From Piscirickettsiaceae bacterium (GTDB lineage Bacteria; Pseudomonadota; Gammaproteobacteria; Nitrosococcales; Methylophagaceae), in the NCBI GenBank assembly GCA_018646825.1, contig JABGUA010000053.1:1-39055 (forward strand): 39,055 bases of DNA, read 5' to 3'. Positions 1,967-19,467 of the stretch are shown piece after piece (position 1 is the first letter of the stretch; every line of letters starts with the position of its first letter). The position numbers and the translations under genes were made by a program. The notes under the pieces are model-generated. The model saw nothing but the letters and a program-made list of their open reading frames with translations. It made no database searches and was not told where the DNA came from.

Positions 1967-1979
1967 AATTAGTTTATTG

Positions 1980-2135: not shown

Positions 2136-2147
2136 TTATTATATATA

Positions 2148-2156
2148 TGTTATATT
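2148..2156 (+). promoter_or_regulatory. Candidate extended -10 element (TGTTATATT) upstream of rfbB
   Basis: TGnTATATT motif about 120 nt upstream of the rfbB ATG in an AT-rich spacer. A near-identical TGTTATAAT lies upstream of the rfbB relic at 22143-22135. Confidence 0.25.
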
Positions 2157-2275
2157 CAGTGACTGTACTACCGACTAGGGGTTTTAATTTTTTTTCTAGT
2201 CTATTTAGACTTTTATTTTAATCGATATAAAATGGCGACTGAATATATTTTAAAACTAATGAAAGTCCCGGCATT

Positions 2276-3343
2276 ATGATTCTCATCACTGGTGGTGCAG
2301 GTTTTATTGGCTCCAATTTTTTGTTGGATTGGCTCGCTCTCTGTGACGAGTCTGTGGTCAACCTTGACCTGCTGACTTATGCAGGCAACCTTGCCAATCT
2401 GTCTTCCCTCGAGAACGACCCGCGCCACATTTTTGTTCGCGGCGATATTGGCGATATCAGGCTAGTTCCTGAACTCCTTAACAAGTATAAACCTCGTGCT
2501 GTGGTCAACTTCGCAGCCGAGAGCCACGTCGACCGCTCTATCCACGGTCCCGAGGACTTCGTTCAAACCAACGTTGTTGGCACATGTCATTTACTCGAGT
2601 CAGTTCGGGCCTACTGGGGTGCCTTGGGTGAAGATGCTAAGTCCAGCTTCCGTTTTCTGCATGTCTCGACCGACGAGGTCTACGGTTCACTAGGTCAGGA
2701 TGGTCCTGCATTCACTGAAGAAAATAGGTATCAGCCTAACAGCCCATACTCAGCCTCCAAGGCAGCCTCCGACCATCTGGTGCGAGCCTACCATCACACC
2801 TACGGTTTGCCCGTGCTAACGACCAACTGCTCGAACAACTACGGGCCGCACCACTTCCCAGAAAAATTGATTCCGCTCATGATCGTCAACGCCCAGGCTG
2901 GCAAGCCATTGCCCGTGTACGGTGACGGCCAGCAGATCCGTGACTGGCTCTATGTTAAGGATCACTGCAGTGCGATCCGCCGTGTCCTCGAGGCAGGTAA
3001 GCTGGGTGAGGTCTACAACGTCGGTGGCTGGAACGAGAAACCGAACATCGAGATCGTGCAGCGTGTCTGTGCGCTTCTTGACGAGATGAACCCGCGTGCG
3101 GATGGCAAAAGCTACCTCGAGCAAGTGACCTATGTGACCGACCGACCTGGCCACGACAGGCGTTACGCGATCGACACGGTTAAGATCGAGCGTGAGCTCG
3201 GCTGGAAGCCTACGGAAACCTTCGAGACAGGGATTCGCAAGACGGTGGCTTGGTACCTTGAGCATCAAGACTGGGTGAATAACGTCCTCTCCGGTAGCTA
3301 CCGTGACTGGCTCGAAAAAAATTATGCGGAACGAGTTGAGTGA
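2276..3343 (+). CDS. rfbB: dTDP-glucose 4,6-dehydratase
   Basis: ILITGGAGFIGSNF Rossmann motif, YSASKAASDHLV catalytic YxxxK, 355 aa, first gene of an rfbBDAC block. Confidence 0.95.
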   Translation: MILITGGAGFIGSNFLLDWLALCDESVVNLDLLTYAGNLANLSSLENDPRHIFVRGDIGDIRLVPELLNKYKPRAVVNFAAESHVDRSIHGPEDFVQTNVVGTCHLLESVRAYWGALGEDAKSSFRFLHVSTDEVYGSLGQDGPAFTEENRYQPNSPYSASKAASDHLVRAYHHTYGLPVLTTNCSNNYGPHHFPEKLIPLMIVNAQAGKPLPVYGDGQQIRDWLYVKDHCSAIRRVLEAGKLGEVYNVGGWNEKPNIEIVQRVCALLDEMNPRADGKSYLEQVTYVTDRPGHDRRYAIDTVKIERELGWKPTETFETGIRKTVAWYLEHQDWVNNVLSGSYRDWLEKNYAERVE

Positions 3344-4245
3344 AGCCAATTACGATCCTCCTCTTCGGTAAAAATGGTCAAGTGGGCTGGGAGTTGCAGC
3401 GCAGTCTCGCACCATTAGGTGATTTAATCGCGCTTGATTTCGATAGCCAAGAATTTTGTGGTGACTTCACTAACCTTGGCGGACTTGCCAAATCTATTCG
3501 TGACGTTGCGCCGGATGTGATCGTGAATGCGGCGGCGCATACTGCGGTTGATAAGGCTGAAAGTGAGCCAGAATTAGCCCGCACTATTAATGCACTTGCG
3601 CCAGGTGTTTTGGCGCAGGAAGCTGAACGCCTAGGTGCATGGCTTGTGCATTATTCAACGGACTATGTGTTTGATGGGGGTGGCGACAGGCCGTGGCTGG
3701 AAGTCGACATGACCGACCCCTTAAGCGTCTACGGAAAAACGAAGCTGGCAGGTGAGGAGGCTATCCGTTCAGCTGCCTGCAGGCACCTGATACTTCGTAC
3801 TAGCTGGGTGTATGCGGCGCGTGGCGGTAACTTTGCCAAGACCATGCTTAAGCTGGCGCAGGAACGTGACAGCCTAAAGGTCATCGATGATCAGGTCGGC
3901 GCCCCCACAGGCGCTGATTTATTGGCCGACGTTACCGCCCACGCTATCCGTACGGCAATGCAACGGCCTGAGGTCGCTGGACTCTATCACCTCACCGCCG
4001 GCGGTCAAACCTCCTGGCACGCATATGCAAGCTTCGTCATTGACTGCGCACGTCAGGCGGGTGTTGAGATTAAGGTGTCACCAGATGCAATTCAGGCTGT
4101 GCCCACCAGCGCCTTCCCAACGGTTGCCAAACGCCCAATGAATTCGCGCTTAGATACCACAAGGTTCCAGAATGCCTTTAACTTTAAATTACCGCACTGG
4201 CAAACTGGCGTCAGTCGCATGCTTAACGAGTCTCTGGGAAAATAA
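3340..4245 (+). CDS. rfbD: dTDP-4-dehydrorhamnose reductase
   Basis: [21 protein letters not shown] and YGKTKLAGE motifs. The GTG start overlaps the rfbB stop (GTGA). Confidence 0.93.
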
Positions 4246-4247
4246 TA

Positions 4248-5135
4248 ATGACACAACGTAAAGGTATTATCCTCGCAGGTGGCTCCGGCACCCGGCTCTA
4301 TCCTGTGACAAAGGTGGTCTCCAAGCAGCTGCTACCCATTTACGACAAGCCGATGGTTTATTATCCGCTGAGCACGTTGATGTTGGCGGGAATGCGGGAT
4401 ATTTTGATTATCTCTACGCCACAAGATATCCCACTCTTCGAGCGGCTTCTTGGCGATGGTAGCGAATGGGGCCTTAACCTGCAGTATGCGGTACAGCCGA
4501 GCCCTGATGGCCTCGCTCAAGCGTTTATTATTGGTAAAGATTTTATTGGTAACGACCCTAGCGCTTTAGTGCTGGGCGATAATATTTTCTACGGCCATGA
4601 TTTGCAACTCCAACTTGAAAAAGCCGTGACGCAGGATCAGGGCGCAACGGTGTTTGCCTATCACGTGCAAGACCCTGAGCGCTATGGTGTGGTAAGTTTT
4701 GATAAGAACGGCAAGGCGACCGCTTTGGAAGAAAAACCTACAATCCCTAAAAGCAACTATGCGGTGACGGGCCTGTATTTTTATGACAACCAAGTGGTAG
4801 ACATGGCCGCCAACCTTAAACCCTCGGCTCGTGGTGAGTTAGAAATTACTGACTTGAACCGTATTTACCTTGAGCATCAACAGCTCACAGTAGAGGTCAT
4901 GGGTCGTGGCTATACTTGGCTAGACACAGGCACCCATGAGAGCTTAATTGAAGCGGGTAATTTTATTCAAACCATCGAGCATAGACAAGGCTTAAAAGTG
5001 TCGTGTCCTGAAGAAATCGCCTACCGCAATGGCTTTATTAACGCCGAGCAATTGGAAAAACTGGCGCAGCCACTTTCTGAAAATGGCTACGGACAATACT
5101 TAAAATGCCTGCTTAAAGAAGGGATTCAGCCTTGA
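4248..5135 (+). CDS. rfbA: Glucose-1-phosphate thymidylyltransferase
   Basis: [34 protein letters not shown] signature, 295 aa. Confidence 0.95.
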
Positions 5136-5677
5136 GCATCACCCCGACAGCCATTCCAGATGTGCTTCTAATAGAGCCTAAAGTGTTTGGTGATGACCGC
5201 GGCTTATTTTTTGAAAGTTTCAATCAAGCAAAGTTTGAATCGCTTGTCGGTCGACAAGTAAACTTCGTGCAAGATAATCACAGCAGGTCAGTTAAAAATG
5301 TATTGCGAGGTTTGCACTACCAAATTCAGCAGACTCAGGGTAGATTGGTGCGTGTGGTGCAAGGTGAAGTGTTCGACGTGGCGGTGGATATTCGTAAAAG
5401 TTCCCCTACATTTGGCAGATGGGTGGGTGAAATCTTATCTGCTGATAATAATAAACAACTATGGGTGCCTGAGGGTTTTGCACATGGATTCTTGGTGCTT
5501 TCAGATGCCGCAGAGTTTTTATATAAGACGACCGATTATTATGCGCCAGAATTTGAGCGCAGTATTATTTGGAATGACCCGGATATCGCTATAAAGTGGC
5601 CACTTGATGTTGAACCAGTATTATCTGTCAAAGACCAGCAAGCCAAAACATTAGCAATAGCAGAGCAATTTGTATGA
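5132..5677 (+). CDS. rfbC: dTDP-4-dehydrorhamnose 3,5-epimerase
   Basis: [18 protein letters not shown] and VPEGFAHGF cupin motifs. The TTG start overlaps the rfbA stop. Confidence 0.95.
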
Positions 5678-6021
5678 CCTCTGCATCAACAACCATTAAC
5701 CCACGCACAGCGCAACCTACATCACTCTTAGCCCTGGCTAAAAACCTGTGGCGCAACCGGCAGCTCATTGTAAAAATGACTAAGCGTGAAGTGATTGGAC
5801 GATATAAAGATTCTGCCATGGGTTTGGCTTGGTCGTTCTTTAACCCCGTATTCATGTTGGTGGTGTAGACCCTTGTATTCTCGGTTGTGTTCAAAGCGCG
5901 TTGGGGAGTTGTGGCAGAAGACAGCAAAACGCTATTTGCTGTAGTGCTGTTTGCGGGCATTAGCGTCCCAAGTCTTGCTCACCGCAGCGTGTTTGATCTA
6001 GATCATTATTCAATTTGGTAA
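5674..6021 (+). pseudogene. wzm: ABC-2 (Wzm-type) permease fragment with in-frame TAG and 3' truncation
   Basis: The start overlaps the rfbC stop (ATGA). REVIGRYKDSAMGLAWSFFNPVFMLVV-TAG-TLVFSVVFKARWG...LFAVVLFAGI is a typical Wzm N-terminus. Family similarity is lost near 5961, the frame ends at 6021, and more than half of a normal permease of about 260 aa is missing. Confidence 0.7.
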
Positions 6022-6251
6022 TGGTGCGTAAACTTACAATTGAAAGATTTTGCAATATCATGAAATACAAATTGGTTAAATGGTTAATCAGTTGTCAGCA
6101 TGGTGTTTTTTATATATAAAGGTCGTTGTAGAAAACGGATTATAAAGTACGTTAAGCTTTGTATTATCCGCCCTTATAAACAGTAGCTTGACCGATATTT
6201 AGTTCAAACATGTTAATATTGATCAACCTTTTAAGAGTTGTTGAAACATAA

Positions 6252-7190: not shown

Positions 7191-7243
7191 TTTAATTACT
7201 TACAGTCAACCGTTTAAACACCAAACTTCCTAAAGTTCTTATT

Positions 7244-8572
7244 TTAAATAGCTTTCCTACAAACGTTGGCGTAAGCCACTACCATTTCATCAAAAGTTGT
7301 CATCTGTGATATACGTTGAAGCGAACTCTCGGCCATCCGCAACCGCAGCGCATCGTCATCCGCCAATTGTTCAATCTGCACCGCTAGTAGGCGACTATCT
7401 CCCGGCGGGTAAAACAATGCATTCTCCCCTTCAACCACTTGCTCAAGCACTCCAAATACGGGTGTCGTGATGATGGGTAAGCCAAATGCCATGGCTTCGA
7501 GCACGACACGAGGAAAGCTTTCAACTTTCGAGCTCAGAACAAAAATATCGGCGGCGGCATAAAAAGACGCAATCGATTCGGTCGGCGGAAAAATACGAAT
7601 GCCAGCCAGTGCGCCAACTGGGAGCGAATGGCTCCTATCTTTAATAGCCTCCGCGTAGGTGCCCCGGTCGTCACCAACCAGCAGTATCTCAACCCGACTC
7701 GAAATCGCTTCGGGTAGTGCGGCAAAAGCCTCGACCAAATCCATTTGGCCTTTTCTGTCACACAACGTGCCCACACAAAGGATTGCAATCGAGCCGGACT
7801 TAAGGTCTAGCGCGGTGCGGCAGCGAGCGCGCTCAGTGGCAACACTCCGCAGGGGGAAACGGTTGAGATTGATCCCGTTGTGTATGACTTCAAAACGCCC
7901 ATCAACATCAAAAGTGTTCCAGACTGTTCTGGTAGCTTGCGCAACGAAAATAACTTTTTTAGGTAAACCAATCGCAGCTATCGCACGCTGTGCAACTGGG
8001 TCAGGTAAAAAACGGAAATAACTATTCCAAGGTTCGCTCTCGCGAGGGTTCCAAACCGAAGGCACTCCAGCACGTTCAGCAGCCAGAATCGCAGGAAAGT
8101 TCAGTAACGTATTGACGAAGACTAACTTGGCCCCAGATGCCTGAATAAGCAAAGTAAGGCGCTCAACCTCAATGCTCAGGCGTTTAAGTGTGGAAATCTT
8201 GTGCAATACGCTCGGCAATATCTGTACGGTGATTCCATGAGCTTCATACTCGGCTCGCAACGGACCGTCCTCGAATGCCACCACCTCAGGGATAATGACC
8301 TGGCGATTCGTCAGGCCAAAAACAAGCTCTTTCAGGCTAATTGAAGCGCCTTCGTAACAAAGGTTATGGGAAAAAATGAGAAGTTTTAGCGGGATCTGGC
8401 AACCAAGGGAACTTCCATACGGAGCATCAGTTGATAAAACTCGCGATACCAAAGACTTGGGGCGAGGCACCGGCCTCCGCAACCCGAGGGACAGTCGCAA
8501 GCGGTGAATCAGCCACGCGACATCGCCAGACATCAAGTACAGCACAAAACGGGTGATCTTTGAATGACTCAT
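7244..8572 (-). CDS. Family 4 (GT-B) glycosyltransferase
   Basis: C-terminal SSKVESFPRVVLEAMAFGLPIITT (EX7E-type motif). AGAGG Shine-Dalgarno 8 nt upstream of the ATG. Last gene of the minus-strand operon. Confidence 0.85.
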   Translation of the reverse strand: MSHSKITRFVLYLMSGDVAWLIHRLRLSLGLRRPVPRPKSLVSRVLSTDAPYGSSLGCQIPLKLLIFSHNLCYEGASISLKELVFGLTNRQVIIPEVVAFEDGPLRAEYEAHGITVQILPSVLHKISTLKRLSIEVERLTLLIQASGAKLVFVNTLLNFPAILAAERAGVPSVWNPRESEPWNSYFRFLPDPVAQRAIAAIGLPKKVIFVAQATRTVWNTFDVDGRFEVIHNGINLNRFPLRSVATERARCRTALDLKSGSIAILCVGTLCDRKGQMDLVEAFAALPEAISSRVEILLVGDDRGTYAEAIKDRSHSLPVGALAGIRIFPPTESIASFYAAADIFVLSSKVESFPRVVLEAMAFGLPIITTPVFGVLEQVVEGENALFYPPGDSRLLAVQIEQLADDDALRLRMAESSLQRISQMTTFDEMVVAYANVCRKAI

Positions 8573-8591
8573 GTGAGAAACCTCTGAAAGC

Positions 8592-9350
8592 CTACGCAGG
8601 GCGAACTACATAGATCATGCAGGCGCTGCCTAGCCATTTGGAAAGTTGTTGCCTTGCGCTCAACGAAAGCCGGGGGCCAAGCACCATATGCCCTGTATAA
8701 AAAAGCCCGACCGGCATTGCCTCATCAATGATGAAAAGTTGCTTTACGAAATGTCTATTCCAATGACGCGAGCTAAAAGTCACTATTTCGCTTAATGCAT
8801 TGCCCGTTTCACCGTGGCGAGGAACGAGAGCATAGTGTTTGACGGTTCCCGCCATCAAGCGCAGCACACTCATGGCATCAGACAGTACGTGTTTCGAAAG
8901 CCCCTTGGGTATCAAGCGAGGTATCAACCCAAACAGGCGCTGCAAAAGCTCCGCATAGTGAGCCACATTAGTCCACAAGCGCCATGCGCCGGTGGGCATG
9001 AGGTGGACACAGTAGCCGCCTGGCTTCAAAACTCGTTTCATCTCCGCTTGCAGATACGGCAAATCACGCACGTGCTCCAATACGTTGGAAGAAAACACAA
9101 CGTCAAAGCTACCGTCTGAAAATGGAATATTCCGACCATCATAAGGCTGTACAGGAAACTCCAATTGGCCAGCATAGCTGGAGTCTGGGATATCGATTGA
9201 ATCAACGATAAAGCCATCCTCAGTGAGTCGTTTTGCCTGATACCCGGTTCCGCCACCAATTTCGAGTATTCGGACACCCAGCGAAAAGCGGCTAACGATT
9301 TTTTTGTATTCGTATTCCCGTATTACATGCAGAAATTCAACGTTAAACAT
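8592..9350 (-). CDS. Class I SAM-dependent methyltransferase
   Basis: ILEIGGGTGYQA (motif I) and FDVVFSSNVLEHV. Clear paralogue of the protein at 31068-31787. Confidence 0.85.
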   Translation of the reverse strand: MFNVEFLHVIREYEYKKIVSRFSLGVRILEIGGGTGYQAKRLTEDGFIVDSIDIPDSSYAGQLEFPVQPYDGRNIPFSDGSFDVVFSSNVLEHVRDLPYLQAEMKRVLKPGGYCVHLMPTGAWRLWTNVAHYAELLQRLFGLIPRLIPKGLSKHVLSDAMSVLRLMAGTVKHYALVPRHGETGNALSEIVTFSSRHWNRHFVKQLFIIDEAMPVGLFYTGHMVLGPRLSLSARQQLSKWLGSACMIYVVRPA

Positions 9351-10557
9351 TTATCACCCCAGCCGGCAGCTTTTCAAGTAATTGCTTCGCCATGCTCTCA
9401 GGAGATAAATTTACTTCAGCATAGGCACGGCTCTTAAGTCCCATGTCAGCCAGAATAGCTTTGTTCTTTTCCATCAGCATCAGATGATCCGCAATCTGCT
9501 CGGGTGACTCGGCATTAAATCCTGGGAATGGCTCAAGGAAGCGTTGACCAAAAATCTCAGCTCTAAATTTTGCCATCACCGGGCGACCTAAGGCGTAAGC
9601 ATCCGTTGTCACCATTCCAGGAAATGATGAGCCAAACTGATCACACACCAGGTCGACAGCAATCATTTCTTTATAGAATTGAGCGAGCGGCATTTCATCC
9701 AACCAGTGTATCCGCTCTACAATGGCTAATTCAGAAATGAGTTCAACCGCTGCTTGAAGGTCTTGGCCTTTACGTGGCAACCTCAACTCCCCATTTCCCC
9801 CTCGCTGGCAATATAATGCAAAGCCTTTGAGCAAGATATCTATGCCCTTGAAGTCTATGGCGCTCAAAGCAGGATTGTGTTCTGGACGATAGATTATCCG
9901 ACTGCCACACAAGATAGTGAGCTTATTATTTTTGGCTGCCGGCTGCACTTGCAAATCAATTGTGTTTGAAAAATGCAGCATCAAGCGACGCTCGTCGATA
10001 ACTCCAATGCCGTCTAGCATCTGGTCACCGGAGGGAACCAAACCTCGCTGCCCATAACAAACTACCTCAGCGCCCAGAATCCCATCGCGCTGGCGAGCAA
10101 CCGAGTCAACCATACAGCGCAGATGCCGTCGCCCTTGCAAGGAACGCTTAAACTCGGGGTCCCACATGCTGGTTCGCATTTCTATCGAATCAAAGCTGGC
10201 GTAATAGGCCAAATCCGAACCGGTGAGCACTACGGCATAAGGGGTTCGAAGGTAGCCTGCCAATGCAGGGCCGGTATCGTTGAGAATGACAAAATCGACG
10301 TTGTGCGTCAGCTGGTGGATCACCTGATTTATTGTTGGGGTTTCGAATTCGATGTCTTCATCAGTTAGATTAGAACAATCTACAACCCAGTTCGGATAGT
10401 TATCTGCCCAGTCGGGATATCGGGATTCCGGGCGGTGCAACAGATCCTTGCGATTAAGCACCAGGCGAACATTGTGCCCGAGAGTACGCAGCCCTTGCGC
10501 CAGCAGCAAAGAATAGTTGTTGATGTTACCAAAGATGGCGATAGAAAGTTTGTGCAC
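9343..10557 (-). CDS. GT-B-fold glycosyltransferase-like protein (divergent)
   Basis: N-terminal KLSIAIFGN Rossmann-like start. C-terminal half with KGIDILLKGF...FPGMVTTDAYALGRPVMA resembles GT4. I prefer the GTG start at 10557 (AAGGGG SD 7 nt upstream) over the tool's ATG at 10578. Confidence 0.55.
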   Translation of the reverse strand: MHKLSIAIFGNINNYSLLLAQGLRTLGHNVRLVLNRKDLLHRPESRYPDWADNYPNWVVDCSNLTDEDIEFETPTINQVIHQLTHNVDFVILNDTGPALAGYLRTPYAVVLTGSDLAYYASFDSIEMRTSMWDPEFKRSLQGRRHLRCMVDSVARQRDGILGAEVVCYGQRGLVPSGDQMLDGIGVIDERRLMLHFSNTIDLQVQPAAKNNKLTILCGSRIIYRPEHNPALSAIDFKGIDILLKGFALYCQRGGNGELRLPRKGQDLQAAVELISELAIVERIHWLDEMPLAQFYKEMIAVDLVCDQFGSSFPGMVTTDAYALGRPVMAKFRAEIFGQRFLEPFPGFNAESPEQIADHLMLMEKNKAILADMGLKSRAYAEVNLSPESMAKQLLEKLPAGVINV

Positions 10558-10706
10558 GCTGTTACCCCTTGTCCGCATGCAGGCGCCATTCGTAGGGTTT
10601 CATACCCTTTTTGCTTGCCTCGTCGGCTACCAATACGACTTCAGTTTTTTCGTCATTGAATTGTGTTTTAATTTTTATTATTTGACTTTGATTGTCATGG
10701 AAAACT

Positions 10707-11411
10707 TCACTCAATAATCACTTTGTCCGGTGTTCGGCTCCGGATATGGTTTTTTGCATCAGGACCACAATTCGCAATCAAGTCTAATACCATTACCGTG
10801 CCTTCAAACGGTCCCCAAAGTTGGGGGTATGGTTCATAGTCGTAAGACTTGTATTCCAGACGTATTCCGTTCCTACGAAAAGCCTCTTTATCCAAGTAAA
10901 CATCTGCGCTTGGCCCACTCAAATAGCTTGTTGCATTGAGCTTCTTTAAGAGATCAATCAAGCGATCGGTTTTAGTGCCCTCCAGTGAAAGGTCTGAAGA
11001 ATCGATCAGCGGAGTGGTGATAGAAAGATAATCACATATCCGCTTCGTCAATTCAATATTCAATGAACTCAGATTTTCATATCTAGTAGTTTCAATTTCT
11101 GCGAGCAATTCAACCGTTTCATTAAAAAATTCGGATCGACCATAATTTGTCGTCCACGACCCCTGTAGCCGCTTGATCCAGCCCTGTGAGCAATCGATTT
11201 TCGCATCTCTAATCAGCAAGTCCTTTCCCCCGCGCATCACCGGGATAGTAACCCATTCAGTTCCTTTGGGGGTTTTTATCTTATTTCGATTTCTCCAACC
11301 GCATGATGTGTACTGAACGTCTTCTAAAAATACGAAAGCATCAACACTGGCAATAAAATCAAAATAACCTCGCCAAGGTATAAAAGACGATTGAATGACA
11401 CCAACTTTCAT
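10707..11411 (-). CDS. WbqC-family protein (function unknown, O-antigen associated)
   Basis: MKVGVIQSSFIPWRGYFDFIASVDAFVFLEDVQY...RNRNKIKTPKG..WVTIPV matches the characteristic WbqC-like N-terminus. Confidence 0.75.
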   Translation of the reverse strand: MKVGVIQSSFIPWRGYFDFIASVDAFVFLEDVQYTSCGWRNRNKIKTPKGTEWVTIPVMRGGKDLLIRDAKIDCSQGWIKRLQGSWTTNYGRSEFFNETVELLAEIETTRYENLSSLNIELTKRICDYLSITTPLIDSSDLSLEGTKTDRLIDLLKKLNATSYLSGPSADVYLDKEAFRRNGIRLEYKSYDYEPYPQLWGPFEGTVMVLDLIANCGPDAKNHIRSRTPDKVIIE

Positions 11412-11423
11412 AGAGCACTGCTC

Positions 11424-12140
11424 CTATCGTCTCTGTGCAACAAAACACTTACGCGTCATTTGTTGAAGGCGCTTGTAATTCCCGCTGTCAATTACGTGTT
11501 TTTGTATCGCCTCATTAACGCCGTCGTATGAAGAGAACGCATCATCGAAACATATCCACCCATCGGGTAATAAAAACTGTTCAACAATCCTTATATCTTT
11601 AGCAACCGCATCGTAACTATGATCACCATCAATAAATGCCATTCTCAGTGCAAACTTATTCGGTACGTTCTTTGCAAACCCTTCCAAATCAGTGCGATAA
11701 GGAAACACAACATCTGATAATGAGTTAGTTTGCATGGCGAGAGTAAAGGCCTCTAACGTTCCGCTATATCGTTCATACATGGGCGCTATATCTTTGAGAT
11801 ATGGTTCAGCCCAAACGGTCTGATTCTGATAGGCACCATACGTCTTGCCATCAAGCGTTACCGCAAATGAATAGGTGCCATCTTCGTTCTTAAACCAATC
11901 GTTCTTTTCAGGAAATAGGTCAACACAATGAACCTTGCCTTTACTTGACAGCTTCGCAGCCATGCCCAAAGCTACCGCCGAGCGACCGCACCACGATCCC
12001 AATTCTAGTATGTCGCCATCTAAGTCTGCGCTGGAATAGGCCAGAGTAAAAAGGGTGAGCAATTGGTCAATGGGTGACCAACCGGGTATGTCTTGAATTG
12101 CTTCTTCGATTTGCATCGTTATGGGTTTGGTTGCATTCAT
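11424..12140 (-). CDS. Class I SAM-dependent methyltransferase (Methyltransf_24 / O-methyltransferase-like)
   Basis: ILELGSWCGRSAVALG and FIDGDHSYDAV...DGWICFDD motifs. Confidence 0.75.
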   Translation of the reverse strand: MNATKPITMQIEEAIQDIPGWSPIDQLLTLFTLAYSSADLDGDILELGSWCGRSAVALGMAAKLSSKGKVHCVDLFPEKNDWFKNEDGTYSFAVTLDGKTYGAYQNQTVWAEPYLKDIAPMYERYSGTLEAFTLAMQTNSLSDVVFPYRTDLEGFAKNVPNKFALRMAFIDGDHSYDAVAKDIRIVEQFLLPDGWICFDDAFSSYDGVNEAIQKHVIDSGNYKRLQQMTRKCFVAQRR

Positions 12141-12241
12141 GATTCAGTGTTCTATGTAGGAAAATGGTGCGCTATCTATAGGCTAAAAAAAGTAGGTGTT
12201 GGTGGGGCAGCGTTCGATGTTGGGCAATCTCGACATGTTGG

Positions 12242-13237
12242 CTAGTTTCCAATGAATTCTTCGACCATATCCGCATAGCTACGTCCCTCATGAGGCCAGC
12301 GGGTTCCAGCCCAATCCGGACAGTTATCACAGAAACCATGGCTGCTGTAGTTGTTTGACAAGTGAGCCTTACGAAGAGCTTCGTAAAACTTGCCATGCCA
12401 TTCATCATAAATTGTTGTATTGCAATAATCGGCAACAAACGAGCCATGCACCCAGTCGCTCGGACAAAAGGCCAAGTCGCCACGAGCATTGACAGTAATT
12501 CTTTCCCATGGGTATAGACAGGGGCGCCTAACCTCAGTCTCTTGCTTCTTGCGATTTATGTCCGCGATTTCGATTATAGCCCCAGAGGACGAGTGAAGCC
12601 TACGTATCACAACGTAATCTGCGCCAGCATCCTTCCAGTAACTTTCAAAGTCTCGGACCTCATTCGTGTTTTGTGGCTGCTCAACAAAGCTCACCACCAC
12701 TTTGGTTTTAGATTTTGATTCACGCACCCATTCTAGTAGACGAAGTACGTTTCCACGTGTGACATCAAGGTTGCCGTTAACACGAATCTTGGCGTAGGTC
12801 TCCGGATTAAACGCATCAATACTGATGTCAATCATGTGCACACCAGATTCTAGTAATTTCTGTGTACGTTTTTCATTCATGATCGTACCGTTGGTAGTCA
12901 TCGCCACATAAACGCCAGAATGATCCACGGCAGACTGAATCATCTCATACCCATTCGGGTGAACCAACATTTCCCCATTACTTGTGTAACGAATGTATTG
13001 AGTTTTTCCTTGTCCATGCTTTCTTACCTCTTCGATCATTTTCTCGTTGAGGGCGGGATCGAGATATCTACCATCGTAATGCTCGGATTTTGCAAAATCG
13101 GGATGCGCACAATGCGTGCACGCTAGATTGCAGACTTCCGTGATGTCCATAATGATTTGCGATGGGAACTCTGCTGTTAATCTCCCACCAAAATCATACT
13201 CAGCCTCACTTGTCTTTATAAGTTTGATGCTGGTCAT
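12242..13237 (-). CDS. Radical SAM enzyme with SPASM/twitch-like C-terminal cysteine domain
   Basis: CNLACTHC (CX3CX2C) at residues 36-43. C-terminal C-X12-G-X4-C (CLYPWERITVNARGDLAFC) plus CDNC. The start overlaps the aminotransferase stop by 32 nt. Confidence 0.85.
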   Translation of the reverse strand: MTSIKLIKTSEAEYDFGGRLTAEFPSQIIMDITEVCNLACTHCAHPDFAKSEHYDGRYLDPALNEKMIEEVRKHGQGKTQYIRYTSNGEMLVHPNGYEMIQSAVDHSGVYVAMTTNGTIMNEKRTQKLLESGVHMIDISIDAFNPETYAKIRVNGNLDVTRGNVLRLLEWVRESKSKTKVVVSFVEQPQNTNEVRDFESYWKDAGADYVVIRRLHSSSGAIIEIADINRKKQETEVRRPCLYPWERITVNARGDLAFCPSDWVHGSFVADYCNTTIYDEWHGKFYEALRKAHLSNNYSSHGFCDNCPDWAGTRWPHEGRSYADMVEEFIGN

Positions 13238-14399
13238 AGGCTTGCCATTTTTTCGTCAGTTTTGTTAGATGGTGTATGACATACTCTACATCATCGAGCG
13301 TCATTCGAGCGCTGATTGGTAGTGTCATAATTTGATCAGAAAGTCGTTCAGTAACCGGCAAATTAGTTAAACCAGCCTTGCAATAAAGGGGCTGACGGTG
13401 GAGTGGACAGTAATGAATGCTAGCACCAATATTTGAGTCGCGCAATCCCAACAACAATTCATCTCTACGCATTCCTGTTTTCTTTGGATCAAAGACGCCA
13501 ACCAGCAAATGTCGGGCATGGTGGTTATCAAAGGCTAGGCTTTGAAAAGAGATGTCCAGTCCGGCTTCTGTCATGGATTTCCGGTAGTTCTCGGCCACCT
13601 TTTTGCGGATAACGGCCATGCCATCTAAACGCTGCAACTGAACCCGGCCAATCGCTGCCTGCAGGTCGGTAAAGTTCATCTTGTAGCCTAATTCAGCAAT
13701 TCCTGCCACAAAGACTGTGGATGGCTTTGTGAAGCGAGACCACGCATTGGATTCTAAGCCGCCCATACGCAGGCACCGCAGGTGCTCTGCCTTATCAGAG
13801 TCGAAAAGCGCAATCGCGCCGCCATCGGCTGTGGAGAGATTTTTGTTAGCGTAAAAACTGAAACAGACGGTATTGCCAGATGCGCCTACGCGCTTGCCAT
13901 TACTATGAACAGCACCGAGCGCATGGGCAGCATCTTCAATAATTGCTATATTTGCCGGCAACGATGCTCTCAACGTGTCTACATCAATGGCGTAACCACC
14001 GTAGTGAACTACGATGACAGCCTTGGTACGAGGGGTGATTTTTGCTGCGATGGTTTCCGGTGTAACGCACATACTCTGCGGATCGACATCGGAAAAAACA
14101 GGAGTAGCCCCTAGATACAGTGCGGCATTGGCAGTCGCACACCAAGTAAGGCTAGGCACGATGATCTCATCCCCTGGCCCAATACCTTCAACCAGTAAAG
14201 CCAGGAAAAGGGCCGATGTACAAGAATTGACTGTAACAACTTCTGGCGCGCCGATGTACTCTGATAGTTCTTTTTCAAACGCGATGGTTTCTTGGCCCAT
14301 GCCGACCCAACCAGAACGCATGACGCGGCTTACCGCATCAATTTCAGCATCGGTAAAGTCGGGTGTGCCAAAGGTCAAGAAGGTTGCTCTTTTTTTCAC
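13206..14399 (-). CDS. DegT/DnrJ/EryC1/StrS-family PLP sugar aminotransferase
   Basis: FGTPDFTDAEIDAV, NSCTSALFLAL and FSFYANKNLSTADGGAI (PLP lysine) motifs. I place the start at the in-frame GTG at 14399, which has a GAGGAG SD 6 nt upstream and lies 10 nt after the wzt stop. The tool's ATG at 14474 would overlap wzt by 65 nt. Confidence 0.88.
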   Translation of the reverse strand: MKKRATFLTFGTPDFTDAEIDAVSRVMRSGWVGMGQETIAFEKELSEYIGAPEVVTVNSCTSALFLALLVEGIGPGDEIIVPSLTWCATANAALYLGATPVFSDVDPQSMCVTPETIAAKITPRTKAVIVVHYGGYAIDVDTLRASLPANIAIIEDAAHALGAVHSNGKRVGASGNTVCFSFYANKNLSTADGGAIALFDSDKAEHLRCLRMGGLESNAWSRFTKPSTVFVAGIAELGYKMNFTDLQAAIGRVQLQRLDGMAVIRKKVAENYRKSMTEAGLDISFQSLAFDNHHARHLLVGVFDPKKTGMRRDELLLGLRDSNIGASIHYCPLHRQPLYCKAGLTNLPVTERLSDQIMTLPISARMTLDDVEYVIHHLTKLTKKWQAYDQHQTYKDK

Positions 14400-14409
14400 A
14401 TGCAGCTCC

Positions 14410-15810
14410 TCATGCCAGATCTGGTTCAATTCTTTTGATAGTGAGCGATGCCGGCAAGCTGACAAAGCCGTCAATCATTCCATTCTTTCGGGGTGCTATC
14501 CTGAATTCATAAGTATGTGGTACGATGTCAACAAAAATCCAGTCATCTCTAGGCGCTTCCGGTGGATGCGCCAGGCCGACGGCTAGTACGTAATTGCCGT
14601 GCAGCAACGGGAGTTTCATTACCCATTCAAACAGATAATTAGCACCAGGTTGATAGCAGTGCGACATTTCACCCTGAAGTCGCGTATCGAAGAAGGCAAC
14701 ATCAGTTCCCTGAATGGCGCGTATCTTGATGGAGCAATTCAGATTTCTTAAATTCTTAGTAAATCGAACGAAAACCCTAATGGTTGCTACGTCTTCAAAT
14801 TCAAAATCAGTAATATGCTCGCCATGGCGAAGCATTTGCACATTGATTATTTCTGCATCGCCATTGGTAACACGATGATGTTGGGCGCGCTTTTGAAAAG
14901 CCTCTTGGCCAAAAGCCATGTCTTGCATTTTAGAGCAATCTGCCGCAATTGCGGCACGGCGTTCCTCCGATTCGACATTGGCACCCGTGCCTGCTGATAC
15001 GTTCATGTTGCCGGCTGCATTGCGTGTCGGTTGATTTCTGTCTTCCATCTGTAGTTTCACGTATTGGTCGGACACATCTGCCGTAGCCCCCATTGATCGC
15101 ACAATGCCACCATCTAGCAGTACTGCTCGCTGGCATAGATGCCGCACCGTACTGATGTCGTGACTCACAAACAGTAGCGCCACGCCAGAATCAACCAATC
15201 TGGAAATCCTCGCCATGCATTTCGCCTGAAAAAATACGTCGCCTACTGAAAGGGCTTCGTCAATTATCAGAACCTTGGGCTTTACCGCAGTCTGTACGGC
15301 GAACGCCAGCCGCATCATCATCCCGGAACTGTAGATTTTTACTGGTTGATCAATGAAGTCTCCAATATCAGCAAAAGAAGCAATGCCATCAAACCTATCA
15401 AGTGTTTGCTCACGCGACAAGCCCAAGATTTGGGCATTAAGAAATACGTTTTCTCGCCCAGTAAATTCGGGGTTGAAACCGCTACCTAGTTCAAGTAAGG
15501 ATGTAATTCGCCCTGTGGTTTGAACTATGCCAGCACTTGGCTCCAGAATCCCAGCAATAATCTGTAACAAAGTACTCTTGCCTGCTCCATTGCGGCCAAG
15601 AATACCGACGGCCTCACCAGGCTGCAGTTCAAAACTGACATCTCGCAAGGCCCAGTGCTCGCGATAAAGTGGGCTGGCACTACTTCTGCCAAGTAACCCC
15701 TGAAATCGGTCAAGTAGGGCTTGCTTTAATCTATCTTGCGGGTTTTGAAAAATTCGGTAGCACTTGCTAATCGAGTCAAGGCGAATAGGATGCATTATTG
15801 TCGTGTTCAT
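14410..15810 (-). CDS. wzt: O-antigen/polysaccharide ABC exporter ATPase with C-terminal carbohydrate-binding-type extension
   Basis: Walker A GRNGAGKST, signature YSSGMMMRL, Walker B LIIDEALSVGD, then an extra beta-rich tail of about 220 aa (Wzt_C-like). Sits 1 nt after wzm. Confidence 0.9.
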   Translation of the reverse strand: MNTTIMHPIRLDSISKCYRIFQNPQDRLKQALLDRFQGLLGRSSASPLYREHWALRDVSFELQPGEAVGILGRNGAGKSTLLQIIAGILEPSAGIVQTTGRITSLLELGSGFNPEFTGRENVFLNAQILGLSREQTLDRFDGIASFADIGDFIDQPVKIYSSGMMMRLAFAVQTAVKPKVLIIDEALSVGDVFFQAKCMARISRLVDSGVALLFVSHDISTVRHLCQRAVLLDGGIVRSMGATADVSDQYVKLQMEDRNQPTRNAAGNMNVSAGTGANVESEERRAAIAADCSKMQDMAFGQEAFQKRAQHHRVTNGDAEIINVQMLRHGEHITDFEFEDVATIRVFVRFTKNLRNLNCSIKIRAIQGTDVAFFDTRLQGEMSHCYQPGANYLFEWVMKLPLLHGNYVLAVGLAHPPEAPRDDWIFVDIVPHTYEFRIAPRKNGMIDGFVSLPASLTIKRIEPDLA

Positions 15811-15811
15811 A

Positions 15812-16621
15812 TCAAATCACATCCGCAAATGCTGGACGGGCCTTCTGGAAAACCCAGAGCCCCCCAACAGCCGCAATAAGAGAAATAGCAAAATAAGCTA
15901 ACCAATACAACCAATCCGGTTGATTTCCCAAAATCATCACAGCGCGTAATTCTTCGATAGGATAAGTAAGCGGGTTGAGATAGATCAGTTTTTGCGCCAA
16001 CGCTGGCGCAGAAGATGCTGGGTAGAACACGGGACTCAAGAACAAAAGCACCGACATAGCTATCCCGATCATTTGCCCCACGTCACGAAAGAATACGCCA
16101 ATAGCTGCAAAAAACCAGGAAAAACCAGCAGTGAGTAAAAGCAAAGGGATGAACACCAACGGCACATATAAAGCAGTTGGTGGAATCGATTGGTTCTGAA
16201 TGAGTAAGAAAATGCATAGCAGGCCAAGGCCAATTGAGGCATTAAAGACAGCTGAAGCAAGATGGCAGAATGGCAACAGTTCAAGAGGAAAAATCACTTT
16301 TTTAACGTAGCTCGGACTAGCAAGAATTGCTGAGGGAGATCTTGTCAATGTTTCAGAAAAAACAGCGTGAACGATAAGGCCACAATATAGCATGAGTACA
16401 AAATCTTTCATGTCACCACCACTACCCCATCGGGCATTGAATACCCCACCAAAAACAAAGGCATAAACGGCCAACATCATCAGTGGGTAGACAGCCACCC
16501 ATAAAAAGCCAAGCATGGTGCCGCGATATCGCGCTTCAATATCGCGGATGACTAGCGAGCGAAGTAGACTACGGTTGGTATAAAGACTACGAATGCCGGA
16601 AGTAACATTGTGCTTATTCAA
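15812..16621 (-). CDS. wzm: ABC-2 type polysaccharide exporter permease
   Basis: 269 aa with six hydrophobic segments. The N-terminal IRDIEARYRGTMLGFLWVAVYPLMM motif is typical of Wzm. 4-nt overlap with the upstream GT. Confidence 0.9.
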   Translation of the reverse strand: MNKHNVTSGIRSLYTNRSLLRSLVIRDIEARYRGTMLGFLWVAVYPLMMLAVYAFVFGGVFNARWGSGGDMKDFVLMLYCGLIVHAVFSETLTRSPSAILASPSYVKKVIFPLELLPFCHLASAVFNASIGLGLLCIFLLIQNQSIPPTALYVPLVFIPLLLLTAGFSWFFAAIGVFFRDVGQMIGIAMSVLLFLSPVFYPASSAPALAQKLIYLNPLTYPIEELRAVMILGNQPDWLYWLAYFAISLIAAVGGLWVFQKARPAFADVI

Positions 16622-18522
16622 GTTAGCACCTTTGTTTTTGCAATTACAATCGGAATAGAATGTGTCACTGGATCAATAGTGCCTCCATCTGAACTGAAGC
16701 CATAAAGCATCAAGGTTTCTTGAGTCATTCGATTGATACCAAATACTCGTTTAACAAATTCTGGACCTTGCGTTTCTGATTTTACACGCATGGCCTGATT
16801 TGTTAAATATGTGACTATTAGTGTAGTGATATCTTCAGGAGTGGGTTTCGTTGCTAGCAACCCAGTGACACTGTGTTCGAAAGATTCTCTCGTACCACCT
16901 GCATCAGTTGCTACAATTGGCAAGCTCAACCACTGGGCCTCAAGAACCACATTCGGGGTACCTTCAAATTCCGAAGTTAAAAGAAACAAGTTCATTGATG
17001 ATAGTGGCAAAGCAGCATCTGGGCGCTCCCCCGGCAGATGAACTCGCCCTTTTAATCCATTATCTTTAATAAACGACTCCATCTCTCGGCGCATAGGCCC
17101 TTCTCCGATAACCAGAAAATGTACGTCATGGTATTGCTTTACCAACAATGCTGCTGTTTGCAACCACAGCATTGGTCTTTTTTCTGCCCAGAACCGAAAA
17201 ATAGAGCCAACTACCATCACATTTTCAGGAATACCCAGTTTTTCACGATATTCGCGAACTGCATCACTCGTCACTCGATTTAAGTAGCTGATATCTACTC
17301 CGTTGCGAACAACAACAAATCGTTCTCTTGGAAGCCCGAGCCACTGAGTGTAGTCAGCGGCACCTGCCTTGCTGTTGTTCAGAAACGTTACGCATTCCAG
17401 AGATGCCAGCGCCCGGTAGGCGGGGTGCATGTAGTCCTGATAATAACTAAAGTTCATCGGCGTGACATTCCGACTTGCCAGCACGATGCGTGGCACGCCA
17501 GCAATGACTGCAGCAATTCCTGCTTTAATACTACTTGTGTCTTGCCATGCATGGACAACCTCAGGTCGCCTAGAGCGAAACTCTTCAACTAAATTCAAAA
17601 TCTCCTCAATCAAACCAGGTGCGATATCGGCGAGTAAATCAGCTACTTTTGGATTTACAGAAGAAAGCCCGTCTTCGTTTAACGATATAGAGTGTTTTAC
17701 TTGGCTAACTTCAACCCTAGCAGCTTCCAGCTTATGCAAAAAGAAATCAAGATTTGGAGCATGATCAATATATTCAGCAAGCAAGGCCACAGATTCACAT
17801 TGTCCTGAAGCTTTTAGGCCTATCAGTGTGTTAACGATCTGGCGTTCGGCACCACCCGAGGCTAATCCCGCATTAACAAGCAACACACGGCGAGGAATGG
17901 CACTGTAATTCTTGCTTTGAGTAGATTCATGTGCACGCTGTAGTAGCTTTTTATAGAGCACCTCTTCAGTAAGTCCGCTATTATCCGGCCTCTCTTTGCC
18001 AAGCATTTTGGAAGATAAATCTTCACGTTTAAATATTCTTCGCCAAAGTTTTCGAAGCAAGGAATTTTGTTTTGCAAATCCAACTATCTTCCGCAACGGA
18101 TGGTTTTTTGGTTGTTGCCCAATTCTGCGTATCAGTTTTTCTCCTACGCGCCACAAGGAGAATCGATACATAGATAATTTTTGATAGCTGCCATTGATTC
18201 TGCATACAATGGAAAACCGCCTACTCTTAATCACCTGCATTGCCATCTGGCGCGTTATCATGAACTGAGAACCTATGAAAACAATAGGGGCACGAACAGT
18301 AGGCAGTCGCCAGCTATGATCTTCGAAGCAATCCAGCCACATACCGGTGCAGTTGACTGCAATTTCGGATGAGGAGTTACGCAGCACCAGCCCTTTGCAT
18401 AGAGTGTGCTCGCGTAGCTCAAGAATGTCTTTTACCTCAACAGTAAAAGGTATAGCAAGTACTGCGCCTTTCATATTCCGACTTTTAATGAAGTCTAGGG
18501 CTTCTATGATTCTTTTATTCAT
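16618..18522 (-). CDS. Two-domain protein: N-terminal domain of about 210 aa with no recognisable motif, plus C-terminal GT4 glycosyltransferase
   Basis: From residue about 213: VLLVNAGLASGGAERQ...LTSEFEGTPNVVLEAQWLSLPIVATDAGGTRE (GT4). I could assign no motif to the N-terminal part. Confidence 0.8.
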   Translation of the reverse strand: MNKRIIEALDFIKSRNMKGAVLAIPFTVEVKDILELREHTLCKGLVLRNSSSEIAVNCTGMWLDCFEDHSWRLPTVRAPIVFIGSQFMITRQMAMQVIKSRRFSIVCRINGSYQKLSMYRFSLWRVGEKLIRRIGQQPKNHPLRKIVGFAKQNSLLRKLWRRIFKREDLSSKMLGKERPDNSGLTEEVLYKKLLQRAHESTQSKNYSAIPRRVLLVNAGLASGGAERQIVNTLIGLKASGQCESVALLAEYIDHAPNLDFFLHKLEAARVEVSQVKHSISLNEDGLSSVNPKVADLLADIAPGLIEEILNLVEEFRSRRPEVVHAWQDTSSIKAGIAAVIAGVPRIVLASRNVTPMNFSYYQDYMHPAYRALASLECVTFLNNSKAGAADYTQWLGLPRERFVVVRNGVDISYLNRVTSDAVREYREKLGIPENVMVVGSIFRFWAEKRPMLWLQTAALLVKQYHDVHFLVIGEGPMRREMESFIKDNGLKGRVHLPGERPDAALPLSSMNLFLLTSEFEGTPNVVLEAQWLSLPIVATDAGGTRESFEHSVTGLLATKPTPEDITTLIVTYLTNQAMRVKSETQGPEFVKRVFGINRMTQETLMLYGFSSDGGTIDPVTHSIPIVIAKTKVLT

Positions 18523-19451: not shown

Positions 19452-19467
19452 ATCAATTACTCGTTGC

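Follow-up and report, generated by a model that had tools for sequence, protein, structure and literature searches.

A widespread aminotransferase, twitch-type radical SAM and WbqC cassette beside wzm-wzt with a probable role in amino-sugar tailoring

A cassette linked to O-polysaccharide export

A 39,055-nt stretch of DNA from a Piscirickettsiaceae bacterium (contig JABGUA010000053.1; hereafter the window, meaning this stretch at its full length) carries on its minus strand four tightly packed genes directly after wzm-wzt, the genes of an ATP-binding cassette (ABC) transporter for O-polysaccharide. They encode a DegT-family pyridoxal phosphate (PLP) aminotransferase, a 331-aa radical S-adenosylmethionine (SAM) enzyme, a class I methyltransferase and a WbqC-family protein. 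An earlier note, made from the sequence alone, had listed these four genes behind wzt, and its coordinates proved base-exact, with every assignment backed by a Pfam domain (counted for the cassette genes and wzt only above the gathering score; Table 1). We conclude that the four genes very probably constitute the core of an amino-sugar tailoring cassette in an ABC-transporter-dependent O-polysaccharide operon. That they function as one unit in tailoring nucleotide sugars, as that note suggested, is borne out by conserved synteny and by three natural gene fusions.

Conservation and distribution

Considering one genome per species, we found 37 loci whose radical SAM protein is 61–84% identical to that of the window. 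These loci belong to Nitrospirota, Acidobacteriota, Planctomycetota and Pseudomonadota, the last with carriers among the Alpha- (Roseibium, Haematospirillum), Beta- (Rhodocyclaceae, Sulfuriferula, Methyloversatilis, Gallionellaceae and others) and Gammaproteobacteria (Methylomonas, Sedimenticola); beyond the 37, there were occurrences in Armatimonadota (P0058) and on a plasmid of Thermodesulfobacteriota. The trio of aminotransferase, radical SAM enzyme and WbqC, for which the earlier note had proposed such a neighbourhood survey, recurs throughout: the DegT gene lies directly upstream of the radical SAM gene, on the same strand and within 150 nt, in 32 of the 37 loci, and WbqC is present in all 33 loci with enough flanking DNA. 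A Methyltransf_24 gene accompanies them in 27 of the 37 loci, a 411-aa GT-B-like protein in 16, wzt in 15 and wzm in 16. Because the same order recurs in 37 independent genomes, it is beyond chance. Nor is the arrangement uncommon, as had been supposed: a word-indexed search returned 1758 homologues of the radical SAM protein at E ≤ 0.001, the best 120 of which are 72–89% identical, 302–365 aa long and generically named throughout, and besides the 37 species genomes there are distant relatives in other sugar clusters.

The three natural fusions join the radical SAM domain to DegT (P0241), to WbqC (P0256) and to a two-domain formyltransferase (P0337). P0256 is surrounded by genes for DegT, a family 2 glycosyltransferase (GT2), several methyltransferases and a carbamoyltransferase domain, and P0337 by a GNAT gene, an Asn-synthase-like gene, WbqC, an RmlB-like short-chain dehydrogenase/reductase (SDR), an RmlA-like nucleotidyltransferase and DegT. 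WbqC and Maf/MptE-like genes lie around P0241, the latter of a kind that we take to be that of flagellin-glycosylation loci.

On the 133-kb plasmid pDCAR1 of Solidesulfovibrio carbinolicus (positions 23863–42843), a run of genes for the aminotransferase, radical SAM enzyme, methyltransferase, WbqC, 411-aa protein and a further methyltransferase shows 62–74% identity to the window genes (67% for the 411-aa protein) under purely generic RefSeq names. The run adjoins an ABC-transporter ATPase annotated in two pieces as well as IS66-family and other transposase genes, a context suggesting that the cassette has moved between replicons. It has probably moved between lineages, too.

The core of the cassette is the aminotransferase, the radical SAM enzyme and WbqC, and the decorations are modular. 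A NodU/CmcH-type carbamoyltransferase occupies exactly the methyltransferase slot in a Nitrospira locus (L001), and locus L029 has a carbamoyltransferase and no Methyltransf_24 gene. An extra TylF-type O-methyltransferase gene is inserted between Methyltransf_24 and WbqC in at least six loci and probably in three more, where a simple open reading frame (ORF) call had picked an antisense ORF. Nine loci contain a sulfotransferase gene, and in eight a second DegT gene with PLP lysine follows directly after the radical SAM gene. In a neighbour-joining tree of the radical SAM proteins, the seven placeable loci with this second DegT all fall on one side; the window protein stands on the opposite side, as sister to that of Nitrospira L001. 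The closest loci share the whole operon, comprising an AsnB-like gene, a methyltransferase, a TviE-like glycosyltransferase, wzm, wzt, the cassette, the 411-aa protein, a methyltransferase and a GT4 gene.

Further radical SAM genes were noticed in related or comparable clusters. The two most window-like loci, L001 (positions 2435–4378) and L011, encode a second radical SAM protein of 567–647 aa, with a SPASM domain N-terminal to Radical_SAM, between the TviE-like glycosyltransferase and wzm; it is absent from the window. Among rfbF, rfbC, epimerase and glycosyltransferase genes, plasmid pBHWA1 of Brachyspira hyodysenteriae WA1 (L045, positions 1927–20799) bears seven radical SAM/SPASM genes, of which five follow one another directly. 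Five of the encoded proteins are 22–26% identical to the window radical SAM protein, and this stretch holds neither a WbqC match nor an annotated DegT gene. Distant relatives also exist on a Lawsonia plasmid. Given the Brachyspira and Lawsonia examples, a radical SAM gene in a sugar cluster is not unusual in itself.

A twitch-type radical SAM family

The protein matches Radical_SAM (PF04055) with 70.5 bits against a cut-off of 29.5 and thus belongs to the superfamily. Its SAM-cluster motif C36-X3-C40-X2-C43 and its C-terminal pattern C240-X12-G253-X4-C258 ... C303-X2-C306 are both exactly as the earlier note had read them. We aligned the window sequence with 50 representatives from close and broad homology tiers, down to about 25% identity. 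Among these 51 sequences C240, C258, C303 and C306 are invariant, C36, C40 and C43 are kept in 50, and conservation does not extend to C272 or any other cysteine beyond the seven cluster ligands; position 217 varies and holds Ser in the window. The seven-cysteine SPASM motif (CX9-15GX4C ... CX2CX5CX3C ... C) is lacking, as no cysteine follows C306, although the Pfam SPASM model still matches (27.8 bits, cut-off 21.5). The C-terminal ~80 residues align without gaps to BtrN, all four cysteines being matched with a spacing of 18/45/3 residues. Since four cysteines rather than seven are invariant and align in this way, the C terminus is predicted to be a single-cluster twitch domain and not a full SPASM domain. 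Of the SPASM/twitch-like character originally noticed, only the twitch part therefore stands.

Pfam and NCBIfam scans, recommended in the same note, placed the protein in no curated family with a known non-sugar substrate: no NCBIfam model came near its cut-off, the best being a tungsten-cofactor maturase (81 bits vs 380). An N-terminal B12-binding domain, said to be missing, is indeed not among the Pfam matches, and a B12-dependent methylase was rejected on this ground. An exhaustive search of 1.84 billion representatives revealed a small close tier of 44–58% identity and a broad tier of 25–39%, with 120 proteins at E ≤ 1e-30.

BtrN was the only solved protein reached by sequence (phmmer E 4e-6; profile 8e-8). 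DesII chains were not found in the PDB at E ≤ 0.01 by phmmer or profile, and BlsE and AprD4 gave no sequence-level match in the PDB searches. This agrees with the former judgement that the protein is an orthologue of neither DesII nor BtrN: the one is not detected by sequence, and the other aligns in two segments only, the locus being an O-polysaccharide operon and not an aminocyclitol pathway. Also correct was the statement that DesII is much larger (458–479 residues). The AlphaFold model is of medium quality (predicted local distance difference test, pLDDT, 68; cluster loops below 50). Its top Foldseek matches in the PDB, obtained in the structural comparison that had been advised, were BlsE (2e-11), DesII (4e-10) and BtrN (1e-8), ahead of MoaA and peptide maturases; template modelling (TM) scores were 0.72 on target for BtrN and 0.4–0.55 for DesII. 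The predicted fold thus appears closest to three sugar-modifying radical SAM enzymes.

Two variations within the family deserve mention. In P0259 CX3CX2C is lost but all four cysteines of the auxiliary cluster persist; this protein may be a non-catalytic or pseudo-radical-SAM paralogue. Ten relatives at ~35% identity (P0261, P0262, P0265, P0276, P0277, P0280–P0283 and P0288) possess an extra N-terminal domain of ~200 residues with a conserved YFTQWEHxxLPxGxGAR-like motif, in which no Pfam match was found in the five proteins scanned. A hidden WbqC domain in this extension was considered and rejected (hhalign probability 0.5% for P0261 against the WbqC profile).

Aminotransferase, methyltransferase and WbqC

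With 357.8 bits to PF01041, the aminotransferase is a member of the DegT/DnrJ/EryC1/StrS family. Its SFYANK motif keeps the Schiff-base (PLP) lysine, and therefore it should be a transaminase and not a ColD/E1-type dehydratase. Its closest relatives are found among nucleotide-sugar 4-aminotransferases and inosose aminotransferases: of the solved proteins ArnB comes first (6e-72, 246 bits) and perosamine synthase next (195 bits), then TlmJ, inosose aminotransferases and QdtB, and BtrS/BtrR-type enzymes reach 133 bits. None of the NCBIfam equivalog cut-offs is passed, whether for ArnB (NF008658, 322.6 vs 631 bits), PseC (281 vs 423), DesI (TIGR04427, 176 vs 650) or WecE (TIGR02379, 160 vs 434.85). 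Judged by these scores, the enzyme is closest to ArnB rather than to DesI or WecE. The Methyltransf_24 protein had only one weak PDB match, 6g7d, presumably a mycobacterial sugar O-methyltransferase. As it is swapped for an O-carbamoyltransferase in related loci, it is expected to act on a hydroxyl, and it is probably a sugar O-methyltransferase.

The WbqC protein covers profile positions 1–217 of 218 of PF08889 (244.4 bits, cut-off 21.3). Its AF2 model is confident (pLDDT 83.8, predicted TM score 0.84) and yet had no Foldseek match in the PDB at E ≤ 1e-3 (best TM 0.30); we drew nothing from the weak top matches, to ThiF/E1 and amide synthetases. PDB sequences yielded no match to sequence or profile searches, even at E ≤ 10, and NCBIfam has no model for the family. 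We found no functional study in the literature, where mentions call WbqC uncharacterised (PMC5532660); a Burkholderia paper of apparent relevance deals with HpnH. The wbqC gene of Shewanella oneidensis adjoins a dTDP-Qui4N gene and rfbB and bears the annotation of a putative glycine transferase (PMC7253198), and Escherichia coli O121 carries amide-linked N-acetylglycine (PMC7685785).

The dependence between the two families is one-way: the radical SAM protein always comes with WbqC, whereas WbqC relatives occur without it in the three plasmid loci examined. These relatives are 33–43% identical and sit among amino-sugar genes, beside rfbA and rffA in Neorhizobium and beside rffA in Azospirillum. 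On plasmid pBWB401 of Bacillus mycoides KBAB4 (L047, 312458–325117), WbqC directly follows a FemA/FemB-family aminoacyl transferase and precedes a PIG-L deacetylase, with DegT and a nucleotide-sugar dehydrogenase upstream; the FemAB neighbour bears on the role of WbqC. An aminotransferase is encoded in the cassette, yet we could recognise no gene for an N-acetyl-, N-formyl- or other acyltransferase. By elimination, WbqC would most simply be the protein that N-acylates or aminoacylates the new amine, a role that we put forward tentatively.

Proposed reaction sequence

We tentatively prefer to view the radical SAM protein as a dehydrogenase that would convert a carbinol into a ketone in concert with PLP-dependent transamination, by analogy with BtrN/BtrS. 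What we infer here is the type of reaction, the sequence of steps, the identity of the substrate, the part played by WbqC and the cap discussed below. A nucleotide sugar would enter the pathway, most likely a dTDP-6-deoxyhexose that stems from the product of RmlA/RmlB. The radical SAM enzyme would reductively cleave SAM at the C36/C40/C43 cluster, abstract a hydrogen from a ring carbinol carbon and pass the ketyl-radical electron to its single Cys4-ligated auxiliary [4Fe-4S] cluster, for a net change from alcohol to ketone as in BtrN. The translationally coupled aminotransferase would then interconvert ketone and amine on the same sugar. If the radical SAM enzyme acts first, it may supply the sole ketone and the cassette would be self-sufficient, an order that fits the fact that most loci have no dehydratase close by; if it acts after a first C-4 transamination, a diamino sugar could result. 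WbqC would probably transfer an N-acyl or aminoacyl group to the amino sugar, the Methyltransf_24 enzyme would O-methylate a free hydroxyl, and the 411-aa GT-B-like protein, a candidate transferase, would add the finished sugar to the polymer for export by Wzm/Wzt.

All three fold comparators abstract a ring-carbon hydrogen, and each makes or uses a keto group handled by a DegT-type PLP enzyme. Cys4 auxiliary clusters are typical of net oxidations. A net oxidation is favoured because the invariant Cys4-ligated cluster with BtrN spacing would offer an electron sink; in BtrN, the one auxiliary cluster is Cys4-ligated and proposed for electron transfer (PMC10337720). BtrN/BtrS logic is favoured because the radical SAM protein is coupled or fused to an aminotransferase and because a sister clade has a second one. 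The earlier note had set DesI/DesII deamination first among the precedents; with a twitch Cys4 cluster matching BtrN, oxidation plus transamination of the BtrN/BtrS type now takes that place.

Several points weigh against this proposal. The match to BtrN is weak overall (~15–20% identity at the E-values given above), the model is of medium quality, and DesII and BlsE score slightly above BtrN in Foldseek. No curated family backs any reaction type for the radical SAM protein. The window clade has one aminotransferase and no ketoreductase, and it is hard to see what would become of a ketone formed after the first transamination, unless the aminotransferase were to act twice or the radical SAM enzyme to come first. 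WbqC relatives work without a radical SAM partner, so that the latter may act on a WbqC-installed group and not on the ring. The dTDP-sugar assignment is not secure, as the aminotransferase is closest to ArnB, a user of a UDP-pentosulose. The hypothesis of a cap draws solely on linkage to a binding-domain Wzt, and other methyltransferases could be the chain terminators.

New chemistry in the cassette is possible. A bolder and rather doubtful proposition combines all parts: the aminotransferase, twitch radical SAM enzyme and WbqC would form an unrecognised, widespread pathway in which radical chemistry brings a first or second amino function to a position inaccessible to NAD-dependent dehydratases and leads to a new class of N-acylated, O-methylated or O-carbamoylated (di)amino-deoxy sugar that serves as an ABC-export cap read by Wzt, with WbqC as a new fold performing the N-acylation.

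Competing explanations

Rival readings were weighed in the order DesII-type, BlsE/AprD4-type, N-substituent remodelling, epimerisation and maturase. Following DesI/DesII logic, the enzyme would abstract H-3 from an NDP-4-amino-4,6-dideoxyhexose and, with loss of ammonia, give a 3-keto-4,6-dideoxy sugar, which re-amination (by the second DegT where present) and methylation would turn into a desosamine-like 3-amino-3,4,6-trideoxy sugar. That DesII is the second-best Foldseek match, that the order aminotransferase, radical SAM enzyme, second DegT and methyltransferase in eight loci mirrors the desosamine pathway order DesI-DesII-DesV-DesVI, and that several loci have adjacent rmlA and rmlB all speak for it. 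We nevertheless consider it unlikely: there is no PDB sequence match to DesII, the protein is ~130–150 residues shorter than DesII chains, the window clade is without the second aminotransferase, and a Methyltransf_24 enzyme that resembles O-methyltransferases and can be swapped for a carbamoyltransferase misfits an N,N-dimethyltransferase. The invariant Cys4 auxiliary motif points the same way, as DesII to our knowledge lacks one and needs none for a redox-neutral lyase reaction. Slightly less credit still goes to a radical 1,2-diol dehydratase or decarboxylase of BlsE/AprD4 type that would act first on an NDP-sugar (possibly a uronic acid), its product, a deoxy-keto sugar or keto-pentose, then being aminated by the ArnB-like aminotransferase with no need for an NAD-dependent dehydratase. 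ArnA is a formyltransferase fused to a decarboxylase, of which the formyltransferase fusion P0337 is reminiscent; P0337, however, lies among RmlA-like and RmlB-like genes. The best Foldseek match, BlsE, is of nearly equal length (327 aa), the aminotransferase is closest to ArnB, most loci have no 4,6-dehydratase within 8 kb, and genes for UDP-sugar 6-dehydrogenases are found in the window and five loci, but neither BlsE nor AprD4 is matched by sequence, AprD4 is only a weak fold match, an RmlB-type dehydratase stands beside the cassette in L025 and L027, and the Cys4 cluster again speaks for net oxidation. A further point for this reading is that the substrate of BlsE is cytosylglucuronic acid (PMC3715490).

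The radical SAM protein might also leave the ring alone and oxidise, cross-link or otherwise remodel an N-substituent, such as an N-glycyl or N-acyl group, that WbqC or a formyltransferase has installed. Its constant association with WbqC (33/33), set against WbqC with DegT/RffA and without it in three plasmid loci, and its fusions to WbqC and to a formyltransferase would fit, as would the glycine transferase annotation in Shewanella (PMC7253198) and the N-acetylglycine of E. coli O121 (PMC7685785). This is nonetheless improbable, considering that WbqC activity is unproven, that a FemAB-family transferase beside WbqC in B. mycoides means that WbqC may not be an acyl transferase, and that the nearest structural relatives of the radical SAM protein all act on ring carbons. 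Inversion of one ring centre of the amino sugar by a twitch-type epimerase has the twitch architecture and the sugar context in its favour. NeoN and HygY are such epimerases, twitch epimerases and dehydrogenases are closely related, and some radical SAM sugar epimerases need a cysteine to return the hydrogen. The absence of a conserved eighth cysteine among the 51 sequences, position 217 included, makes a Cys-donor epimerase unlikely, and we give epimerisation as a whole little chance. The usual role of SPASM proteins is peptide or cofactor maturation, and a maturase merely sitting in the operon would agree with the Pfam SPASM match and with the best NCBIfam matches, which are maturases of metalloenzymes and peptides, none of them anywhere near its cut-off. 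With four auxiliary cysteines in place of seven, genes that abut or overlap so that no precursor-peptide candidate stands out, fusions to DegT, WbqC and formyltransferase, and strict synteny with sugar genes in 37 genomes, a peptide maturase was rejected, and maturation in general is hardly credible. Net oxidation with transamination after the model of BtrN/BtrS thus remains the reading that we prefer.

Sugar supply

RmlB is the sole confidently assigned 4,6-dehydratase of the window (TIGR01181, 492.7 bits vs 365). Two further SDR genes of unassigned specificity (24866–25927 and 37228–38175), however, make the claim of the earlier note that RfbA/RfbB is the only source of a 4-keto-6-deoxy sugar no more than roughly right. 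The rmlBDAC genes likely supply dTDP-4-keto-6-deoxyglucose, a link to the cassette that we infer. Genes of the rml type adjoin the cassette in L009, L024, L027, L029 and L033; in L027, rmlB-rmlA lie directly upstream and no rmlC or rmlD match was found in the locus. The gene order in L025 is GT2, RmlB-like dehydratase, radical SAM, WbqC, DegT, methyltransferase and FAD enzyme, and in L043 RmlA-like, RmlB-like and DegT genes stand beside WbqC. The contexts of L025, L027, L043 and L046, together with the annotation of Shewanella wbqC (PMC7253198), point from the cassette towards a dTDP-4-amino-6-deoxyhexose. Context thus favours an origin of the amino sugar from dTDP-4-keto-6-deoxyhexose; this had been proposed before and is made plausible by the same loci and by rfbA/rffA in Neorhizobium. 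Which sugar is finally produced cannot be predicted from the genes, now as then.

The window also encodes Ugd and a TviB-like dehydrogenase. A UDP-uronic acid route is possible, since the ArnB-like aminotransferase, Ugd, the TviB-like dehydrogenase and the two SDRs would fit it. In a wider view, the window holds Vi-antigen-like parts at 16618–18522 (-), 19468–21396 (-), 24866–27180 (+) and 34125–36056 (+), namely a TviE-like GT4, a TviB-like UDP-GlcNAc 6-dehydrogenase (592.3 bits vs 592), an SDR and two AsnB-like amidotransferases, which hint at a hexosaminuronic acid or uronamide polymer.

Export and a possible cap

The window has Wzm together with a Wzt bearing a C-terminal domain (Wzt_C, 61.4 bits vs 30.4), which assigns the locus, as far as sequence can tell, to ABC-transporter-dependent O-polysaccharide export with a binding-domain Wzt. 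Called wzt ORFs of related loci are 426–527 aa long, enough for a C-terminal domain. The binding domain is 66–71% identical in L001, L009, L024 and L035 (Nitrospira, Methylomonas, Rhodocyclaceae) and was detectable in nine further cassette loci. Wzt proteins with C-terminal binding domains recognise a non-reducing terminal modification. The finished sugar may accordingly be a non-reducing terminal residue read by the carbohydrate-binding domain of Wzt before export, and we put forward the decorated amino sugar as a candidate cap ligand, as a hypothesis. Conservation of the binding domain was rejected as proof of a cap, as the closest loci share the entire operon.

Gene calls and further features of the window

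The GTG start of the aminotransferase is preceded by GGAG 6 nt upstream, and the wzt stop lies 10 nt before it; the ORF extends to a TTG at 14474, and GTG 14399 is the start that fits the homologues. The radical SAM start overlaps the aminotransferase stop by 32 nt. Residues 16–27 of the radical SAM protein are invariant across 25 homologues, and hence the long start at M1 is correct and the overlap real. The length and overlap given in the earlier note were read from the sequence and hold. The protein in the public collection (P0001, 302 aa, starting at M30) is too short by 29 residues. Promoter and terminator scans of the region yielded nothing above shuffled background, and for this reason no operon boundary is claimed from such signals.

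Table 1 Features of the cassette, the exporter and the dTDP-sugar genes in the window
Feature	Position	Strand	Evidence
wzm, ABC-2 permease of O-polysaccharide exporter	15812..16621	-	Pfam ABC2_membrane 2.5e-23
wzt, exporter ATPase with C-terminal carbohydrate-binding domain (residues ~306-466)	14410..15810	-	ABC_tran 1e-22; Wzt_C 1.2e-16
DegT-family PLP aminotransferase, 397 aa, GTG start	13206..14399	-	PF01041 9e-107
Predicted twitch-type radical SAM enzyme, 331 aa, ATG 13237	12242..13237	-	Radical_SAM 2.5e-19; SPASM 3.2e-6
Class I methyltransferase, Methyltransf_24	11424..12140	-	PF13578 5.7e-18
WbqC-family protein	10707..11411	-	PF08889 1.5e-72
GT-B/GT4-like protein, 411 aa	9343..10578	-	No Pfam family; weak GT4 NCBIfam and PDB matches
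rmlB-rmlD-rmlA-rmlC	2276..5677	+	Pfam and NCBIfam assignments

Between 22001 and 32000 the G+C content is 0.34–0.44, with values no higher than 0.39 in seven of the ten 1-kb bins, and this part contains a plus-strand cluster with a MurJ/Wzx-type flippase; the minus-strand ABC-transporter operon has 0.43–0.51. The flippase and ABC-transporter polysaccharide loci may be of different origin. Towards the ends of the window, we observed an MMPL/HAE3-family transporter with a weak HpnN match (40–1905, +) and, in the SDR at 37228–38175 (+), a weak match to HpnA, a hopanoid-associated epimerase, both far below the family cut-offs.

Comparison with known systems and implications

The sugar logic of radical SAM plus DegT enzymes is established in desosamine, butirosin and blasticidin biosynthesis. 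The cassette shares with BtrN/BtrS a radical SAM enzyme with one predicted Cys4 auxiliary cluster and a DegT-family aminotransferase partner. However, the window protein is ~60–80 residues longer than BtrN and has a conserved N-terminal segment (13–27) that BtrN lacks, and the butirosin enzymes work on an aminocyclitol in the 2-deoxystreptamine pathway of an antibiotic, whereas the cassette likely handles a nucleotide sugar for a surface polysaccharide, with an obligate WbqC. DesI/DesII also consists of an aminotransferase followed by a radical SAM enzyme, to which the sister clade adds an aminotransferase and a methyltransferase in the same order, but there is no detectable sequence similarity to DesII and the cassette enzyme is shorter. 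BlsE, which pairs with a DegT-like PLP enzyme and acts together with BlsH in the blasticidin S pathway on a nucleobase-attached sugar, is near-identical in length. Its second-cluster motif, proposed as C317xC319xxC322 (PMC3715490), is unlike the C-X12-G-X4-C ... C-X2-C of the cassette enzyme. Among solved and curated proteins ArnB stands nearest to the aminotransferase, which reaches about half of the equivalog cut-off; no ArnA-type decarboxylase or ArnT match turned up in Pfam and NCBIfam scans of the window. The WbqC proteins of O-antigen clusters, named from E. coli and annotated in S. oneidensis too, belong to the same PF08889 and are linked to dTDP-6-deoxyhexose 4-aminotransferases; other WbqC relatives, in the plasmid loci examined, differ in having no radical SAM partner. 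The Brachyspira plasmid resembles the cassette in placing radical SAM/SPASM genes among rfb and glycosyltransferase genes, but differs in its gene organisation, without WbqC or DegT partner, and is equally uncharacterised.

In the literature we found no described radical SAM sugar tailoring for Gram-negative cell-surface glycans, and no curated family, solved structure or paper that assigns a function to the radical SAM family of the cassette or to WbqC. The cassette stands apart through a distinct, uncurated family of twitch radical SAM proteins with an obligate WbqC partner, its setting in an ABC-exported surface polysaccharide and its wide environmental spread. The radical logic itself is already known from antibiotics, and the cassette is a well-defined subject that lends itself to experiment.

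The cassette occurs at 60–89% identity in nitrifiers, methanotrophs, sulfur oxidisers, Acidobacteriota, Planctomycetota and on a plasmid of a sulfate reducer, which implies that its sugar is a common component of environmental bacterial surfaces. It provides an entry point both to the WbqC family (PF08889), with thousands of members and no solved structure, and to the range of reactions open to small twitch-type radical SAM enzymes. If its product is indeed a chain-terminating cap, it would represent a new kind of export signal for Wzm/Wzt.

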